Below, one piece after another: positions 1,779 to 19,820 of a stretch of 20,000 nt of DNA. Within the stretch, counting starts at the first letter, position 1, and each line of letters starts with the position of its first letter. The stretch is from an uncultured virus (IMG/VR IMGVR_UViG_3300032295_003754). Its lineage: Duplodnaviria; Heunggongvirae; Uroviricota; Caudoviricetes. The notes under the pieces are model-generated. The model was not told the DNA's origin. It saw only the letters and a program-made list of their open reading frames with translations, and made no database searches. Made by a program: the position numbers and the translations under genes. Location of the stretch: IMG/VR virus record IMGVR_UViG_3300032295_003754; one strand, written 5' to 3'.

Positions 1779-2086
1779 GTATAGAGGTAAAAACTAAAAC
1801 TACTGGGTTTGGTTCACCAGCCGAAACCTATGTAGATAAACGATTAGACTTAAATGATTTAATACCCATGGATGTTATGACCACTTATTATTTTAAATAT
1901 GCTGGTGAAGATAAACATGGTGTAAGGTCAGGAGATATTCTTGTTGTAGATAAGTCAATAGATCCTGAAACAAATGATTTGGTCTTAACTAAATCAGATA
2001 AAATTAATTTGGAACAATTCAATAACCAACCTAATATATGGGGAACAATAACATGGACTTTAAGTCAAAAGAAAAGATTGCAATAA
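1775..2086 (+). CDS. umuD: UmuD-like (S24 family) protein, apparently lacking catalytic residues
   Basis: GFGSPAETYVDKRLDLNDLI matches the UmuD GFPSPA..Y....DLN motif; GDILVVDKS; IWGTITW; ATGA overlap with uvrC; directly upstream of umuC. Confidence 0.8.
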   Translation: MSIEVKTKTTGFGSPAETYVDKRLDLNDLIPMDVMTTYYFKYAGEDKHGVRSGDILVVDKSIDPETNDLVLTKSDKINLEQFNNQPNIWGTITWTLSQKKRLQ

Positions 2087-3240
2087 TTGACGCCAATAAT
2101 TTTTATTGCTCATGTGAAAGGGTTTTTCAACCCAAGTATGAGGGTGTAGCAACTGGCGTCCTATCAAACAATGATGGGTGTTTTATTGCCCGTAGTCAAG
2201 AGGTAAAGGATATGGGAATTAAAATGGGTCAACCAGTTTTCCAAGTGGAAAATGAAAAAAAGACCAAGATTAAAATGTTCTCCTCTAACTACGCTCTATA
2301 TGGTGATATGAGTGATAGGATTGTAAATCTACTAAAAAGACTTGTCCCAAGAGTTGAGGTTTATTCTATTGACGAATCCTTCCTTGACTTAACTCATATA
2401 CCGGAAGATAAAATATTAGAAGAGATTTCAAGTATCAAAAGAACTATACAAAAGTTAACTGGTATTCCAGTTTCAATTGGTGTAGCGCCTAATAAAACTT
2501 TGGCTAAACTATGTAACCACTTATCAAAGAAAGGTGATGGTGTTTGCTCTTATTGGCATATAGATAGGTCTAACCTTTACAACTTGGAGATTGATGAAGT
2601 CTGGGGTATTGGTAGAAAGTATAAAAAAAGACTCTTAAACATCGGTGTCAACACAGTGGATAAGTTTATGAAAATGGATCCTGCCCACGTTAGAAAGATG
2701 TTACACGTTACTGGTCTTAGGACTTGGAGTGAACTTAACGAATGGTTATGTCACCCAATACAAACTAAGTTTAAAGTTCCAAAGATGATTACTTGTTCAA
2801 GGAGTTTTGGTTCTACTGTATGGGAACCAGCTCAAGTTAAGAATGCTTTTTGGACCTTTCTTATGAACTGTCATAAAAAGTTAATAAAGGAAAGATTGGA
2901 GGTAACAAGGGTTAATTTATTTGCTACAACTAATAGGTTTGATGATAACTATTTTGTTTGGTCTATACAAGTTAGTTTAACAGAACAAACTGATAGTATT
3001 GATAAGATTTGGAATCAGATAGCACCATACCTTAGTGAAATGCCTGTAAGACTTTATTATAAAGCTGGTATAAATTTTATCAACTTAAAACCAAATAATC
3101 AAAGACAATTAGGTATATTTGTGGGTAGTGAAAATGAAATAGAAAAACCAAATGTTGACCATCAAAAGTGGCTTACAAGGAGGGAGTTTTTATCAAAGGA
3201 GTTTACTACAAGTTGGGATGATATACCATTAGCTTTTTAA
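2053..3240 (+). CDS. umuC: Y-family DNA polymerase V subunit UmuC (start at 2053 or 2038)
   Basis: IDANNFYCSCE, LSNNDGC, SSNYALYGDMS, YSIDESF, VWGIG, SRSFG, and UmuC-type C-terminal W..RR..LS..FTT.W.D. Confidence 0.93.
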   Translation: MDFKSKEKIAIIDANNFYCSCERVFQPKYEGVATGVLSNNDGCFIARSQEVKDMGIKMGQPVFQVENEKKTKIKMFSSNYALYGDMSDRIVNLLKRLVPRVEVYSIDESFLDLTHIPEDKILEEISSIKRTIQKLTGIPVSIGVAPNKTLAKLCNHLSKKGDGVCSYWHIDRSNLYNLEIDEVWGIGRKYKKRLLNIGVNTVDKFMKMDPAHVRKMLHVTGLRTWSELNEWLCHPIQTKFKVPKMITCSRSFGSTVWEPAQVKNAFWTFLMNCHKKLIKERLEVTRVNLFATTNRFDDNYFVWSIQVSLTEQTDSIDKIWNQIAPYLSEMPVRLYYKAGINFINLKPNNQRQLGIFVGSENEIEKPNVDHQKWLTRREFLSKEFTTSWDDIPLAF

Positions 3241-3243
3241 AAA

Positions 3244-3501
3244 ATGGAACTTAAAGAATACATACTAAAAACTGATTATGCCTTTTGGGGAAAAGGTGGT
3301 AGAAAGGTTCTATATTCAGCTGGTAGTAAACTATTAGTTGAAAAAGAAGTGCTATCAACAAATATTGGACAAGAATCAATTTATTATTACTGCTATTCCA
3401 AACCCAATGTTTTATTAGGATATTATGATGAAGAAGAGTTTTTTGAAATATTTATGAGTTTGGAGGAAGCAAGGGATAAAAAAATTAGCGATATTATTTA
3501 A
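3244..3501 (+). CDS. hypothetical protein
   Basis: 85-aa ORF starting 3 nt after the umuC stop. Confidence 0.7.
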   Translation: MELKEYILKTDYAFWGKGGRKVLYSAGSKLLVEKEVLSTNIGQESIYYYCYSKPNVLLGYYDEEEFFEIFMSLEEARDKKISDII

Positions 3502-3507
3502 TATATA
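3500..3507 (+). promoter_or_regulatory. AATATATA putative phage (late) promoter motif
   Basis: Recurrent intergenic motif upstream of gene starts. Confidence 0.5.
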
Positions 3508-3525: not shown

Positions 3526-4245
3526 ATGAAACACCTAAAAATATTTGAAGATTTTGAAGCACAAGGAACTATCTATCCTGAGATACAAAAAATGATTGAT
3601 GGAAACGATTTCCTAAAAGGAAAGATTGTTGCTGATAAAAATACAGTATATGAGGCAGGCAACTTTATCATTCTTTTAGGAGACCTTTCCCACATCACAG
3701 ATGCTCACGTTGATGAAACTATTCCAGGTTCAAAGTTCAATAAAGGGGTTGATTTGAAAAAAGCTATCATTAATCTTGTATCAAATAATAAACCAAGTCA
3801 AATGACTGCGGGTTTTGGACCTTCTGAAAAAGAGGTTAGTGACCCGAAAGAAGCACAAAAGTTCAAATGGTTGGGATTAGATTCTAAAACAGATGTTGGT
3901 ATAGAGAATGTGCAAAAATCTGAACCAAATTCCGAAGAGTTCAAATCGATGAATGTTTATACATATAAAGATTCGAGAGGTAATGAATTCAAAATCAAAG
4001 TTAAAGAAGGTGAAGGTGAAAAAACTACTTTCCTTAGTTTTATAGGTGCTAAACTTGGTATGATTGGAGATAAGGTTGTTCTTTCTGTAATGACCGCTTT
4101 CCCTGGTAAGAATGCAGTTTCTATTGCTAATAGAAATGACTTTATTAAAAATGGATTTTATTTCACTACACAAAATAAAGAAGTCATCGAAAAGTCCCAA
4201 GGTTCTGTTTCAGAAAGTTTCAAAAGAATAAGAAAGTTCAAATAA
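3526..4245 (+). CDS. hypothetical protein with MKHLKxFE leader; possible toxin-like RNase domain
   Basis: N-terminus MKHLKIFEDF; HITDAH..GSKF and late TAFP motif. Confidence 0.8.
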   Translation: MKHLKIFEDFEAQGTIYPEIQKMIDGNDFLKGKIVADKNTVYEAGNFIILLGDLSHITDAHVDETIPGSKFNKGVDLKKAIINLVSNNKPSQMTAGFGPSEKEVSDPKEAQKFKWLGLDSKTDVGIENVQKSEPNSEEFKSMNVYTYKDSRGNEFKIKVKEGEGEKTTFLSFIGAKLGMIGDKVVLSVMTAFPGKNAVSIANRNDFIKNGFYFTTQNKEVIEKSQGSVSESFKRIRKFK

Positions 4246-4248
4246 AAT

Positions 4249-4275
4249 AAAAACTCTCTTTAAAGAGGGTTTTTT
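4249..4275. terminator. bidirectional intrinsic terminator
   Basis: aaaaactctctt-ta-aagagggtttttt inverted repeat between convergent units. Confidence 0.7.
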
Positions 4276-4289
4276 AATTTCAAATACTA

Positions 4290-4385
4290 TGAAAAAGTGA
4301 AAAACAGGAGTAGCGAATTCCTGTTTTTCTTATAGCCTAAACTATAACCGGTCCTAAATTGTGACACTCAAGTCACCGGTACATT
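4290..4385 (-). ncRNA. candidate structured non-coding RNA of unknown family
   Basis: Adjacent stems: 4299-4309/4319-4329 (11 bp), 4330-4335/4342-4347 (6 bp), and 4347-4351/4376-4380 enclosing 4362-4365/4372-4375. AATATATA motif on the minus strand at 4388-4395; no ORF. Confidence 0.45.
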
Positions 4386-4396
4386 CTTATATATTA

Positions 4397-4738
4397 TTAC
4401 ACAAATCCCTTATCACGAACTAAGTTGATAGCCTTAGCCCTTTCACCCTCCTTTTCTGGGTCCATATCATTCACGACATATCTAACTCCCCTTCCAATAC
4501 CAAGTAATAAATTATCAAACGGTATTTCAAAACGAATCAACTCTTTCAATGTGTGAACATAAAGTGAGTTTGGTCTGGCACTTGTTAAGATAATATGACT
4601 ACCTCTTTCCCTTTCTTGATTGAGGTAATCGAGTGTTGATTGAATAATTTCGGGTGTGGTTTCTTCATAAGTCCCGAACTTTCTATATTTGAATATAGTG
4701 CCGTCGATATCACAAAAAATTGTGTCTTGCTTTTCCAT
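4397..4738 (-). CDS. small HAD-superfamily phosphatase
   Basis: DIDGT motif I, LTSAR motif II, VVND motif IV. Confidence 0.8.
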   Translation of the reverse strand: MEKQDTIFCDIDGTIFKYRKFGTYEETTPEIIQSTLDYLNQERERGSHIILTSARPNSLYVHTLKELIRFEIPFDNLLLGIGRGVRYVVNDMDPEKEGERAKAINLVRDKGFV

Positions 4739-5131: not shown

Positions 5132-5160
5132 TTATTATATATTAAATTATATCAAATATT

Positions 5161-6120
5161 ATGTCAATATACTTAGTGCAATGTTCAGGATGTGATAAAG
5201 AAAAACAAACTATCGGTATTTCGAATTATATCAAAGTCCTTTTTTCTACATATAGAGTCAATTCTATAATAAACCCAGAAAAGTTCACTCCGTGTGTGAG
5301 TAAAACAACCTCTTGGTTGTATGACCAGTTCTATGAAAATAAAGAATATATCTATGAAGGTGAATGGAAGGAAGAAGGTGGATTAGCTTTCGATAATTGT
5401 TCCATGTTCCTAGATAATGCTTTATTTGCTTGGGAAGGTAGTAATAGACTTTACTATTTTAAAGAAAATATCCGTTATAATCTTCAAGCTGACCACCAAT
5501 CATATTTCCCCAATCAAGAGTGCACACATAGCACTTGTGGGTGGAAATTCTATGTAATGCCATCTGATAATATAAACTGTGAACCATTTCAAAATCAATT
5601 GATGGCTCGTGAACCTAACTCTATTGATTTGAAATATACTAATATTCCACAAAATATTAGAGATTTATATCTATCCATCATAGAGAAATTCCGAATAATC
5701 GAACCTATTAGAAATCATGTGAATAGTCAAGTAGAAAAGATAGGTGGTGATTATTTATCTGTTCATATCAGAACTTGGAATACATTTGGTAATTTGAGTG
5801 ACCAAAGGTCTTCAAATGATAGATATAATTGGTACCTATCTCAAAGAGATAACTTTGTAAACGCTATAAACAGAAATCCTTTGAAAAAATGTTTCATTTC
5901 AACGGATAATATGGACGAGATAAAACAACTTTTACCAAATATAATTGATAAGGAAATCTATTTTTATGAAAAAAACAGTGATTTAACCGATTTACAGAAT
6001 GACTTTTCTGAACTTTTAACACTTTCAAAGTGTAATTATTTTATCGGTTCCAACTTATCAACTTTCTCTGAACTCTCTTGGTGGTACGGAGGATGTAAAG
6101 CACCTGTTGAAATATATTAA
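5161..6120 (+). CDS. GT-B fucosyltransferase-like glycosyltransferase (NodZ/O-FucT-like)
   Basis: SVHIRT, FISTD and LSKCNYFIGSNLSTFS motifs typical of GDP-fucose-binding fucosyltransferases. Confidence 0.7.
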   Translation: MSIYLVQCSGCDKEKQTIGISNYIKVLFSTYRVNSIINPEKFTPCVSKTTSWLYDQFYENKEYIYEGEWKEEGGLAFDNCSMFLDNALFAWEGSNRLYYFKENIRYNLQADHQSYFPNQECTHSTCGWKFYVMPSDNINCEPFQNQLMAREPNSIDLKYTNIPQNIRDLYLSIIEKFRIIEPIRNHVNSQVEKIGGDYLSVHIRTWNTFGNLSDQRSSNDRYNWYLSQRDNFVNAINRNPLKKCFISTDNMDEIKQLLPNIIDKEIYFYEKNSDLTDLQNDFSELLTLSKCNYFIGSNLSTFSELSWWYGGCKAPVEIY

Positions 6121-6121
6121 T

Positions 6122-6156
6122 AAAAAAAGTGGGATTTTAGATCCCACTTTTTTTTT
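6122..6156 (+). terminator. intrinsic terminator
   Basis: aaaaaaagtgggat-tttag-atcccacttttttttt. Confidence 0.85.
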
Positions 6157-6175
6157 ATTTTCAAATTATTTTTTT

Positions 6176-7371: not shown

Positions 7372-7384
7372 AATATATACTACT

Positions 7385-7849: not shown

Positions 7850-8149
7850 ATGAGAAAACTAATCTTTTTCGGACTTTTTACATTCACATCTTGTATCTAT
7901 ACCGGGCCAATCCCACAACCAACTCCAATTTATAATACAGGTCCCTACTATTATTATCAAAATCCAGCACAGAGAGATTGTAGTTGCGGATATGTAAATT
8001 ACAAAGGTGTGGACCAATATGGTGTTTATTTTATTGATGTTCAGAATCAATGTTCAGGGAATATCAAAAGATTCACTTTTGAGAAATCAGATTGGGTGAA
8101 TTATGAAATTTCAGATCCAATCTGTATGACACAAAATTCTGCTTGGTAG
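7850..8149 (+). CDS. putative lipoprotein, Cys-containing
   Basis: MRKLIFFGLFTFTSC lipobox-like; CSCG, NQCSG, PIC. Confidence 0.7.
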   Translation: MRKLIFFGLFTFTSCIYTGPIPQPTPIYNTGPYYYYQNPAQRDCSCGYVNYKGVDQYGVYFIDVQNQCSGNIKRFTFEKSDWVNYEISDPICMTQNSAW

Positions 8150-8181
8150 AAACAATCCTCCCAATTTTCAATATAACCTAT

Positions 8182-9018
8182 ATGTCAAAACCTCTTTTTA
8201 TGTGGGCTGGTGGTAAGAATAAAATGATTAAGAAATACTTACCCCATATGCCCGAATCTGTTAAGGAATACAGTGAGCCCTTCTTTGGTGGTGGAGCTAT
8301 GTATTTGTATGTTCAGAAAACTTATCAACCAGAAAAATGTTATATCTCTGATACGAATGAGGGTATTATTGAAATCTATCGTTCAATCAAAAATAATCCA
8401 GAAGAGTTTAAAAAATATCTAAGATACTTTGACTCTAAGTACATTCCTTTGGATATAGTTGAAAGGAAAAAACTTTACTTTAAAGTAAGACATGACCATG
8501 CATATAACTATACAAATTGGAATAAAGTCCAAGAAAGTGCCACACTTTACTTTCTGATGAAAACTGGATTCAACGGTATCTGGCAAATAAATAAAAATAC
8601 AAATGGTAGATTTGGAACACCTGCTGGACTTTTAAAACAAAAAGAAAGTTGTTTCAATTTTGATTTGATTGATGAATGGCACAAACTCCTCCAAAACACC
8701 GAAATCATTTGTGGTGATTGGAAAACCTGCCCAACCGGTGACTTTACTTTTATTGACCCACCTTATAGAGATTCGTTTACAACCTATGGAACTGGTTGGG
8801 GTGATAATGAATGTGACGAGTTAATGAGATTGGCTCAGAATATTGATGGTAAAGTATTCCTATGTAACCGTGATGATGGTAGTGATTTCTTTGAGAACAG
8901 ATTGGGTAAATATCAAATCCACAGATTCGATTATAAATACACTGCTGGTCGTAGGAAAAAGACTGCAACAGGATTCGAAGCTAAACCAGCGGTTGAGATA
9001 TTAATGTCCAAGGATTAA
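8182..9018 (+). CDS. dam: Dam-like (D12 class) N6-adenine DNA methyltransferase; target site unknown
   Basis: WAGGK, EPFFGGGA, FNG, DPPY; start moved to ATG 8182. Confidence 0.88.
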   Translation: MSKPLFMWAGGKNKMIKKYLPHMPESVKEYSEPFFGGGAMYLYVQKTYQPEKCYISDTNEGIIEIYRSIKNNPEEFKKYLRYFDSKYIPLDIVERKKLYFKVRHDHAYNYTNWNKVQESATLYFLMKTGFNGIWQINKNTNGRFGTPAGLLKQKESCFNFDLIDEWHKLLQNTEIICGDWKTCPTGDFTFIDPPYRDSFTTYGTGWGDNECDELMRLAQNIDGKVFLCNRDDGSDFFENRLGKYQIHRFDYKYTAGRRKKTATGFEAKPAVEILMSKD

Positions 9019-9786: not shown

Positions 9787-10074
9787 ATGGTTACTTTACA
9801 AATTATATTCTTTACTATTCTGTATATGGTGCCCTCTGTTATTGCTTTTTTTAGAAAGAAACGAAACAGATGGGCTTTATTTTCCCTAAATACTTTCCCT
9901 TCTTTCGAGTTTCTTGTTGTTCAATTATTAAACTTTATAAACGAGGATTTGAATCTAAGTATAGACCTCGACACATTTGTAGATACTTTGATTTATTGTT
10001 GGTTGGTTAGTTTTATCTGGTCACTCTTGTGGGAGAACAAAGAGGAAAATTCAGATATTACATTTAATATATAA
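9787..10074 (+). CDS. superinfection immunity (T4 Imm-like) membrane protein
   Basis: LYMVPSVIAFFRKKRNRWALFSLN...WLVSFIWSL fits the Imm pattern Y..P.IIA..R...N...IF.LN...W...LIW. Confidence 0.6.
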   Translation: MVTLQIIFFTILYMVPSVIAFFRKKRNRWALFSLNTFPSFEFLVVQLLNFINEDLNLSIDLDTFVDTLIYCWLVSFIWSLLWENKEENSDITFNI

Positions 10075-10500: not shown

Positions 10501-10538
10501 ATTTTTGGAAAATCCCACTTATAAATATATAAGTTATT

Positions 10539-12472: not shown

Positions 12473-12484
12473 TGAACTTATATA

Positions 12485-13090
12485 TTATTTCCAAAACAAA
12501 ATCTCCCAAGCCAATTTCAACCTTGTGAGAAAACTAACTCGAACCTCCTTACGAGACTCAACCCACTGACATCTTTCTCTGATAACCTCCATCATTATAT
12601 TTTTAATCTCGGATTCTGTGAATGAGTCAATTTTCATATAACAACTATTATCACTAGGATTGTACTTGTTGAATCCAAGTAAATGTGCGATATTTAATTC
12701 TTTTCCTATAACACCATCAGGATGAGCACCCTCACCAGTACAAAAGGTAACATAACTCATGTCCTTATTGATTTTTCTACAAATAAATGGATTTTTATAC
12801 CACCTCTGAATCGCATTTCCAGCATCTTGCTGTTTCTTTGCCTCAAATGCACAAATCAAAACATCATCATAAAACCACACACCACCATCTGGCGCACACC
12901 CACCTATATGGCCGGGTATCTGGTCCTTTGTTAGTTTCAACTGAACCTTCAACTTGGGAAACTCCCTCTTCAAAGTTTCATAAACATCGTTTTTTACATC
13001 TTTACACTGTGTATCCAAAAGTCTCGCTCTAGCATCTGTTGCGACCATACCATTTTGAATACCTCCCATAAATCGTTTTGTGTTTTCCAT
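12485..13090 (-). CDS. EcoRI-like type II restriction endonuclease (PD-(D/E)xK)
   Basis: PDGG...EAKKQ...AGNAIQRWYKN parallels EcoRI PDGG...EAKHQ...AGNAIERSHKN. Confidence 0.75.
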   Translation of the reverse strand: MENTKRFMGGIQNGMVATDARARLLDTQCKDVKNDVYETLKREFPKLKVQLKLTKDQIPGHIGGCAPDGGVWFYDDVLICAFEAKKQQDAGNAIQRWYKNPFICRKINKDMSYVTFCTGEGAHPDGVIGKELNIAHLLGFNKYNPSDNSCYMKIDSFTESEIKNIMMEVIRERCQWVESRKEVRVSFLTRLKLAWEILFWK

Positions 13091-15574: not shown

Positions 15575-15590
15575 AGACATATATATTATT

Positions 15591-16133: not shown

Positions 16134-16143
16134 AAAGTATATA

Positions 16144-17457
16144 TTATTCCACACCCTCATAATCTTTCCTAATCTTATCAAATAACCTAACCAATAATCC
16201 AGATAAACACTCAAATCCATCACACTCACAATGTATGTATTCATCATCAGGGTCATCATAGTTCTTATACTGAACTTCATAGTAATCATCTTCCATTTTT
16301 AATACCCTCAAAACGTGTGTAGATTCACCCATTTCACCCATGGCTAATGTGAACTCAGTACTATCACTAAAGTTAGTTGAAATATAATCTTCGTTCAAGG
16401 TTTCAAGTAGTTTATTGATAAACATTTTCTCAGATTGATTGAAAGGTTCACGGTTGTTCATACGGATTCTTGATGAGCCGAAAATATAATCACCATTTTC
16501 ATCTAAAAGATTTCTTGGTTCTGGCACTTCATCAAAATATGATTCATTAGTTTTATTTTGACCAATCAATTCTCTATATCCTTGGAATATTTCTTTTAAA
16601 AACTTTTCCCAACATTCATAACCATCACAACGGTATGACTTTGTTCCACCATCACTATCGTTTCCTTCCCAAACATTCACATAGTAGAATTCATCATCAT
16701 TCTTATATGATGTGAGGCTTCTTATCACAGTCGTAGATCTAAGATCAGGATAAATTCCATCATGTCCATTCACCATACTAAAACTTAGCTGTGAATCTCC
16801 AATTTCTAGCGCATCTATTTTATGTTTCAGAGGTATCGTATCATTCAAAGAAATGAATAATTCCTTTTCTTCTTGATTGAAATCTATTTCTTCAGCATTG
16901 TTAACCTCATCATCCCATTCATTATCATCCATGAGTTCTGGTTCTGGTATTTCATTAAATGATTCTTTTAGTATCTTATGTGTCTGTTGGTCTATTTCAT
17001 AACACTTATCAACCATCCAATTTTTCCATAGTCTTGGATTTGATATAATCTGATCAAACTCTTCTATTTCCATTCTACCATAGATGGTTTGGTCTTGTGG
17101 ATATTTTTGGTAGTTCGTAAAATCCGTTCCAACATTTCTATAACCATATCCAGATTGAAAATAAACATAAGGTTCATCACCCTCAGTCTTCATAGTAGAA
17201 AACTTGGTATTGAATACCATTTTAGCATCCAAATAACTATATTTAAAATAAAACATTATATGTTGTTTTACCTTTGAATCATAGTTGATATTTATATCAG
17301 TCTTTCTCACATTCATAGTAAGTCCTATTGTGGTTTTACTACTAAACCTCATATGAATAGATTGTCTTGATAAACTTTCAAATTGTTCGCGTGTTAGTAT
17401 ATCTGGATTTATTTCCCTAGAGAAACCAAATGATTCAAATAACTTTAAATGTTTCAT
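16144..17457 (-). CDS. hypothetical three-module protein with MKHLKLFESF leader and two ~140-aa internal repeats
   Basis: Repeats begin ESFNEIPEP and ESYFDEVPEP and end CDGYEC and CDGFEC. Confidence 0.8.
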   Translation of the reverse strand: MKHLKLFESFGFSREINPDILTREQFESLSRQSIHMRFSSKTTIGLTMNVRKTDININYDSKVKQHIMFYFKYSYLDAKMVFNTKFSTMKTEGDEPYVYFQSGYGYRNVGTDFTNYQKYPQDQTIYGRMEIEEFDQIISNPRLWKNWMVDKCYEIDQQTHKILKESFNEIPEPELMDDNEWDDEVNNAEEIDFNQEEKELFISLNDTIPLKHKIDALEIGDSQLSFSMVNGHDGIYPDLRSTTVIRSLTSYKNDDEFYYVNVWEGNDSDGGTKSYRCDGYECWEKFLKEIFQGYRELIGQNKTNESYFDEVPEPRNLLDENGDYIFGSSRIRMNNREPFNQSEKMFINKLLETLNEDYISTNFSDSTEFTLAMGEMGESTHVLRVLKMEDDYYEVQYKNYDDPDDEYIHCECDGFECLSGLLVRLFDKIRKDYEGVE

Positions 17458-18621: not shown

Positions 18622-18648
18622 ATATCTATATATTCAAATAATCGATGA

Positions 18649-19748: not shown

Positions 19749-19820
19749 TAAAAAAAATAATATTTTAATTATATATTATTTTTTTATATACTAAATATAA
19801 ATCCAAATATCTAAGGAACT

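Follow-up and report, generated by a model that had tools for sequence, protein, structure and literature searches.

A predicted small RNA family of viral contigs whose invariant segments are complementary to the helix 69 region of 23S rRNA

The locus and its predicted RNA

The window, by which we mean the whole 20,000-nt stretch of DNA from an uncultured virus that was analysed, contains two convergent ORFs separated by a gap at 4246-4396. The ORF table showed this gap to be the longest stretch without a long ORF, which bears out an earlier sequence-only reading of this DNA that had described it as the largest non-coding gap. The 161-nt gap region folded with z-scores of -4.47 on the minus strand and -5.13 on the plus strand, and none of 200 shuffled sequences folded as well. 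The hairpins and motifs described in the sequence-only reading were all found where it had placed them on the minus strand, and the terminator that it had noted at 4249-4275 is present and terminator-like in both directions. The features of the locus are as follows.

3526-4245 (+): ORF of the convergent pair flanking the gap
4249-4275 (both strands): second hairpin, bidirectional and terminator-like, which serves the convergent gene at 3526-4245 (+)
4292-4383 (-): predicted small RNA of about 92 nt, both ends predicted, with three hairpins and then a U tract
4376-4380 / 4347-4351 (-): stem P1, ACCGG/CCGGT, enclosing hairpin H1 and a 3' bulge (span 4347-4380)
4372-4375 / 4362-4365 (-): hairpin H1, TGAC-TTGAGT-GTCA
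4352-4361 (-): bulge, CAATTTAGGA
4349-4358 (-): invariant block 1, UUUAGGACCG (TTTAGGACCG), complement of 23S rRNA 1920-1929, with G1929 matched by a U-G pair
4342-4346 / 4331-4335 (-): hairpin H2, TATAG-TTTAGG-CTATA (span 4331-4346)
4319-4329 / 4299-4309 (-): hairpin H3, GAAAAACAGGA / TCCTGTTTTTC, an 11-bp stem with a 9-nt loop, ATTCGCTAC, at 4310-4318
4310-4321 (-): invariant block 2, GGAAUUCGCUAC, the loop plus two stem pairs, complement of 23S rRNA 1930-1942 with one 23S A unpaired
4292-4298 (-): U-rich tail, ACUUUUU, after H3
4388-4395 (-): promoter-like AATATATA box lying upstream, with 7 nt between it and the first paired base
4397-4738 (-): ORF of the convergent pair and upstream co-oriented gene, 113 aa, weak similarity to HAD phosphatases; its stop codon lies 1 nt from the AATATATA box

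The Pfam matches of the 4397-4738 (-) ORF had E-values of 4.5e-4 to 1.2e-3 and were under the curated cut-offs. H3, with 11 bp followed by ACUUUUU, has the form of an intrinsic (Rho-independent) terminator; a consensus terminator scan made no call there because its loop limit is 8 nt and the H3 loop has 9 nt. Both copies of TTTAGG had been described as unpaired. In the minimum-energy fold the first copy sits instead in an alternative G-U-rich stem, but the fold proposed in the sequence-only reading is the one conserved in homologues. The gap holds a real, conserved gene for a predicted small RNA, either stand-alone or part of a 3' UTR.

Elsewhere in the window, Pfam matches identified an IspD-like nucleotidyltransferase (1-450), a UvrC-like nuclease with GIY-YIG and RNase H domains (510-1778), a Y-family (ImpB/UmuC) DNA polymerase (2038-3240), and a Dam-type methyltransferase (8143-9018). 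The majority of the remaining ORFs had no Pfam match.

Members and distribution of the family

A blastn search of the region against 50,697 phage records returned one match, a perfect 38-nt stretch covering hairpin 3 in the uncultured phage LR756502.1 (642 kb). This genome carries a single copy with unrelated flanks, and the whole three-hairpin element is present there with compensatory changes in the stems. When four family members were searched against cultured phages, the uncultured LR756502.1 alone was returned by blastn, in which the shared core of 15-20 nt falls under the E-value limit. Pattern searches were more productive: the 19-mer of hairpin 3 was found at 14 loci in viral contigs, and two looser patterns gave at least 121 matches each. 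Pooling yielded at least 183 distinct sequences, of which three without a T after the loop were dropped; the 180 that were analysed received no further curation, and a few chance matches may remain among them. Two features define membership, and the window has both: block 1, YUUAGGACC(G), lies unpaired between hairpins 1 and 2, and the last hairpin carries the loop AAUUCGCUAC (4310-4319) closed by covarying pairs.

In one genome per species of 185,579 bacterial and archaeal species, the family pattern matched 20 times, which is about the number expected by chance according to our own estimate. The family architecture was seen in two of these 20 matches only (L147 and L150), both on MAG contigs. 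A covariance model, R1, was built from 15 close homologues. It matched the window at 4292-4393 (-) with 89 bits and an E-value of 1e-23, a match that arises by construction, the window being among the 15 seeds. Family members outside the seed scored 24-56 bits. Each of five large phage genomes (165-642 kb) had one strong copy, and the other R1 matches in them had E-values of 0.0096 or worse. A second R1 match in the window, at 6031-6160 (+), was rejected as a further copy; it is an ordinary terminator. The sole contig seen with two copies is a viral contig of 36.7 kb, where the copies, separated by approximately 780 nt, follow a ribonucleotide-reductase gene and a 137-aa ORF, respectively (L045 and L046).

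The sequence-only reading recognised no named family, and Rfam 15 agreed, with no match at the gathering threshold in the window or in 20 homologous loci. At E-values up to 10, Rfam returned only weak, terminator-driven matches, the best of which was SpF39 on the other strand (37.9 bits against a threshold of 60). ARAGORN found no tRNA or tmRNA genes in the window, and a tRNA lay within 2.5 kb at only 1 of 60 homologous loci, so the family is not linked to tRNAs. Our literature search retrieved no paper with the element's 15-mer or its complement, and none relevant on RNAs complementary to 23S rRNA or to rRNA in general. The motif was absent from the six supplementary files of Fremin et al. 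2023 (PMC10690425) that were searched, and the family may be present, unnamed, in that catalogue. By these comparisons, the element is a member of a large, widespread, and uncatalogued family of predicted RNAs that occurs almost exclusively in viral contigs, and the family appears to be new relative to Rfam and the searchable literature.

Covariation and the transcribed strand

The homologues show compensatory changes, in keeping with the earlier view of the element as a structured RNA that is preceded by a promoter-like box and ends in a terminator of its own. In the R1 alignment of 76 matches, whose fit leans towards the structure of the model, standard pairs made up 88.6% of cells compared with 67.3% in shuffles, and the covariation score was 0.569 compared with 0.196 in shuffles (0 of 500 reached it) and at most 0.189 in controls with slid partners. 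In H3, 96.7% of cells were paired across these 76 sequences, and nine of ten pairs had changed on both sides. The pairs that close the AAUUCGCUAC loop covary (GG/CC, AC/GU, UG/CA, and CC/GG), as do the pairs of H2. Among the 15 close homologues, the basal P1 pair is A-U in 10 and U-A in 5, and the inner hairpin is present in all 15 with differing sequences, leaving the block UUUAGGA unpaired.

Three properties favour an RNA of the minus strand: G-U pairs are frequent and A-C pairs rare in the stems, a T-rich tail follows H3 in 100 of the 180 members, and the upstream gene is usually co-oriented. A comparison of folding energies between sense and antisense favoured the sense strand in 75 of 180 members.

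The promoter-like box and the genomic context

The window contains 11 copies of AATATATA, compared with 3.5 expected, and none of 200 shuffles reached 11. The sequence-only reading had noted that the copy next to the element is followed by no protein gene. This holds: the other ten copies each precede the start of a same-strand ORF of at least 59 aa by 4-28 nt, and the copy at 4388-4395 alone does not. The ten are listed below.

3500-3507, 5136-5143, 7372-7379, 10066-10073, 10524-10531, 12479-12486, 15580-15587, 16138-16145, 18627-18634, and 19770-19777: other copies of the box, often as AATAATATATA

In seven of the ten genes the box lies 4-7 nt before the start codon. If the box is a -10-like promoter element, many mRNAs of this phage would be leaderless or nearly so. 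A TATATA box is also found 6-8 nt before CCGG, the first paired base, in 10 of the 15 close homologues, with unrelated flanks. In the window's subtype, this spacing fits a putative promoter that starts the RNA at P1.

Across the family, the upstream gene is co-oriented at 53 of 69 loci and opposite at 5, and the downstream gene is convergent at 14 and absent at 16. The setting is one of replication and nucleotide-metabolism genes; those downstream include nrdB-, HAD-, Nudix-, kinase-, and clamp-like genes, identified partly by eye. No neighbour is constant, and thus no linked protein partner is apparent. In 30 of the 180 members the element begins right after the stop codon of a ribonucleotide-reductase gene, at the C-terminus of the large subunit, and has no promoter box. 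One ribonucleotide-reductase gene upstream of a family member (L063:1463-2464) contains a remnant of an intein-splicing domain, below the Pfam cut-off.

This context bears on a purely cis-acting explanation, in which the element is the 3' UTR of the upstream gene with its intrinsic terminator, acting in termination and mRNA stability, and the conserved bases serve terminator or RNase functions with no role in trans. The co-oriented upstream genes, the 30 members placed directly behind the reductase stop codon, the frequent T-rich tail, and the HAD-like stop codon 1 nt from the box in the window are all as such an explanation predicts. The sequence-only reading had named as its own counter-case an element that behaves only as the 3' UTR or terminator of the HAD gene, and the box-less copies behind reductase genes make this partly true of the family. 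However, termination needs neither an invariant 10-nt loop nor an invariant upstream block amid varying stems, 58 non-reductase members lack a T tail entirely, and the promoter-like box keeps a fixed spacing in 10 of 15 close homologues. The complementarity to rRNA described below would also be left unexplained, and we consider a purely cis-acting role improbable. Regulation of a downstream gene by a riboswitch or cis attenuator, for which that gene should be co-oriented, does not suit the window, where the element is followed by a second terminator and then by a convergent gene.

Complementarity to 23S rRNA

The only bases that are invariant in the family are two blocks, YUUAGGACC(G) and the loop AAUUCGCUAC, and the stems vary around them. 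Comparison with E. coli rrlH showed that CGGTCCTAA corresponds to 23S rRNA 1920-1928 and GTAGCGAA to 1930-1937, one base apart. Together with their flanking bases, blocks 1 and 2 are the reverse complement of the contiguous segment 1920-1940, with one A unpaired. This segment takes in the 3' strand of helix 69 together with the nucleotides that follow. The two blocks occur in the same 5'-to-3' order as the target, and the element is thus not a simple captured antisense; its blocks would act as two separate recognition modules and not as one continuous antisense.

Positions that the search patterns leave free agree with pairing. Opposite G1929, 93 of the 180 members have C, 75 have U, 12 have A, and none has G; opposite C1920, 155 of 180 have G. 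The complementarity extends further in the window, where bases 4335-4347 in H2 are the complement of 23S 1907-1919 (the 5' strand and loop of helix 69); a gapped alignment of 4335-4358 to the 23S antisense matched at 21 of 24 positions with one gap. Another member, L007, shares 21 of 22 bases with the minus strand of 23S 1907-1928 (local blastn, E = 8.6e-6), and seven members gave this HSP. Searched against E. coli genomes, L007 gave no match at E-values up to 10, the database being too large for a 22-nt match.

Energy calculations placed the best site for the block-1 segment of the window within the rRNA operon at 23S approximately 1905-1930, with -31.6 kcal/mol compared with -23.4 +/- 2.0 for shuffles (0 of 100 as good). 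When self-structure was counted, the two best of 156 rRNA windows were 1877-1932 and 1905-1960. Folding of the whole RNA with duplexfold gave long-loop structures. For the loop of hairpin 3 alone, a 16S rRNA site was nearly as good (-12.5 compared with -12.8 kcal/mol). The perfect-antisense form of this loop had no matches, the loop always lacking one U, and the sole match to a perfect 22-mer against helix 69 was a contig with a true rRNA gene. One of the blocks also contains a sense 8-mer identical to 23S 2662-2669; a link to the sarcin-ricin loop by this route was judged coincidental.

The sequence-only reading had proposed that repeated UUUAGG loops bind a protein, and this is not supported by comparison with the homologues. 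The second TTTAGG is present in only 1 of the 15 close homologues, the window itself, where it is a degenerate remnant of the helix 69 antisense, and the first belongs to the invariant block complementary to 23S rRNA. A sponge of the CsrA/RsmA type, or another decoy with repeated motifs, was rejected on the same count of the second TTTAGG and on the GGA of H3, which is base-paired and gives way to other pairs in 68 of 180 members.

More generally, the RNA could bind a protein or ligand, as a decoy or sponge or as an aptamer or attenuator embedded in a terminator that controls read-through into nucleotide-metabolism genes, the match to rRNA being a coincidence. Aptamers and protein-binding sites typically have invariant unpaired bases carried on stems that vary, many copies lie upstream of the co-oriented nucleotide-metabolism and clamp-like genes listed above, and the invariant absence of one U fits a constraint on shape. 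In the window and in LR756502, however, the next gene is convergent and leaves nothing downstream to regulate, and the neighbouring genes vary, with no linked protein partner. By our own estimate, two blocks would match adjacent rRNA segments by chance about once in 100,000, before the extension into helix 69 and the other architectures described below are considered. We regard such a binding RNA as distinctly unlikely.

A site that acts as DNA was also considered. It could be an origin or priming signal for single-strand synthesis, or it could resemble rDNA and serve a homing endonuclease as a target or a recombination site. Homing endonucleases and introns have an insertion hotspot in the 23S region that is matched; small HNH-type proteins, recognised by eye from C-terminal motifs, are encoded just upstream in L001 and L095, and the hairpins fold on both strands. 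The rDNA-like halves are, however, permuted, so that no contiguous site exists, and HNH neighbours were found for 2 of the 19 upstream proteins examined, none of them called by Pfam. The bias towards G-U over A-C pairs points to RNA of the minus strand, and the T tail and the co-orientation of genes (53 of 69 loci) fit transcription. A DNA-level site, including the structured DNA site or origin that the sequence-only reading had offered as its second option, is therefore very improbable.

Other RNA architectures with complementarity to rRNA

Antisense to this part of 23S rRNA is also found in unrelated RNA architectures of viral and metagenome contigs. Two loci, L282:301-375 (+), which is on the same contig as L294, and L298, contain a perfect continuous 21-nt antisense to 23S 1920-1940, followed after approximately 25 nt by an 11-bp canonical terminator with a U7 tract; the terminator stem and flanks differ between the two. 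In L290 the 21-mer is located inside the loop of a terminator-like hairpin, as judged by eye, and L281 and L299 carry 41-46 nt of antisense. These last three loci are not rRNA genes; their antisense segments (21-46 nt) fall within 23S 1917-1961, and L299 is on a 37.5-kb contig. Of 19 metagenome matches, 11 were true rRNA genes with HSPs of at least 183 nt. The pairs L285/L296 and L287/L288 contain 23S-like fragments of 59-63 nt that end exactly at the helix 69 boundary, one of them on a 287-kb contig; they could be an interrupted rRNA gene (an intron or intervening sequence) or another antisense element.

A subfamily without a terminator, comprising 51 sequences (L010, L018, L170, and 48 others), is a larger relative in which block 1 is located in a hairpin loop. 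Its members have an extra hairpin with the loop GGCUGCU, complementary to 16S rRNA 520-526 in the 530-loop region. Minus-strand HSPs at 16S 517-528 were obtained for 39 of the 51, and the fifth base of the loop varies. The conserved 3' tail of this subfamily, AAAGUGAGCA, has no rRNA complement.

Proposed mode of action

The reading that we favour, with slightly better than even confidence, is that the RNA acts by pairing with host 23S rRNA through the displayed block 1 and the loop of H3. From the computed family, structure, conservation, and complementarity, we infer a transcription start, pairing in vivo, and a consequence for the ribosome as follows. Transcription would start from the AATATATA box and run from approximately 4383 to 4292, where H3 would end it; the same hairpin would also terminate the HAD-like gene upstream. 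Stems P1/H1, H2, and H3, which vary and covary, would form a scaffold for the invariant segments: the bulge that follows H1 would present block 1, and the H3 loop, with its YUNR-type UUCG, would present block 2 as AAUUCGCUAC. H2 of the window copy would add complementarity to 23S 1907-1919. Since pairing requires helix 69 to open, the likeliest partners would be nascent or unassembled 23S rRNA and free 50S subunits. Such pairing would disturb the maturation of the large subunit or its use at the inter-subunit bridge region, and might block assembly, block subunit joining, or lead to nuclease cleavage.

Several points weigh against pairing. Nucleotides 1920-1924 of 23S rRNA are already paired within helix 69, and this part of the rRNA is folded in mature ribosomes. 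An 11-nt hairpin loop cannot make all ten pairs without opening its stem, and the invariantly missing U hints at a constraint beyond simple pairing. In the predicted minimum-energy fold of the window, block 1 would be sequestered in a G-U-rich stem. The searches for variants matched to actinobacterial 23S rRNA, which gave none (see below), and the folding-energy comparison, which did not favour the sense strand, also count against it. Short matches arise by chance, such as the sense 8-mer and the 16S site for the H3 loop mentioned above, and it is hard to see how a single small RNA would affect thousands of ribosomes.

A bolder and more tentative extension, which we think possible although doubtful, is that the element is a portable phage RNA "warhead". 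Its loops would pair with the most conserved rRNA (23S helices 69 to 70, and the 16S 530 loop in one subfamily) and mark rRNA that is nascent or in free subunits for misfolding or nuclease cleavage. Host ribosome production would then be shut off, ribonucleotides would be freed for the adjacent ribonucleotide reductase, or ribosomes would be re-tuned for the phage. If this extension is true, it would provide the first known case of a viral RNA that acts on host rRNA through base pairing.

Pairing as such, if real, would mean that a phage RNA, and not a protein, acts directly on host rRNA where the two subunits are bridged. With a target this close to universal, the same RNA could work in any host, which would explain why the identical element is found in phages that have neither neighbours nor base composition in common. 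Pairing would represent a new class of phage-host interaction and would offer a natural antisense design, already tested by evolution, against a region that has been studied as a target for antibacterials.

Relation to known systems

The systems closest in design are CopA/CopT of plasmid R1, RNA I/RNA II of ColE1, and OxyS-fhlA. In these, as in the predicted phage RNA, a stably folded small RNA with a terminator hairpin presents complementary segments in a loop (YUNR-type UUCG) and a bulge and makes contact at two sites. The predicted partner of the phage element is rRNA, however, and not an mRNA or a replication primer; the element is encoded in trans by phages of many hosts, and its pairing is predicted. 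With snoRNAs, archaeal guide sRNAs, and ribosome-associated ncRNAs it shares a short exact complementarity to a conserved and functionally central rRNA segment. Unlike the snoRNAs and guide sRNAs, the element is viral and not cellular, has neither a C/D nor an H/ACA box and no linked enzyme gene, and has its two blocks in the order of the target and not as an interrupted antisense.

The trans-acting sRNAs that derive from 3' UTRs in bacteria and phages also bear a terminator, and they resemble the element in their position at the 3' end of a co-oriented gene and in the terminator shared with it; a separate promoter-like box is present in some lineages of the element. In contrast to such sRNAs, the element keeps the same seed in phages that differ greatly in base composition and neighbours, which would be unexpected for an sRNA tuned to the mRNAs of one host. 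T-box leaders and the EBS2/EBS1 segments of group II introns resemble it only in how they would work, by bipartite recognition with segments in the 5'-to-3' order of the target. They share neither sequence nor structural homology with the element, which has no Rfam match, and the window has no downstream gene to control.

Two minor observations concern rRNA sequences. At 17051-17069 (+) of the window, within the coding region 16144-17457 (-), 18 of 19 bases match the antisense of the 5'-terminal 19 nt of E. coli 16S rRNA, a match that is probably due to chance (E = 0.1 in a search of the window against the operon). Searches for RNA variants matched to the actinobacterial form of 23S rRNA gave no matches; the 23S target in a Rhodococcus genome (G004, reached through L141) has two differing bases in the helix 69 3' strand, and that in a Paenibacillus genome is identical to the E. 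coli target.
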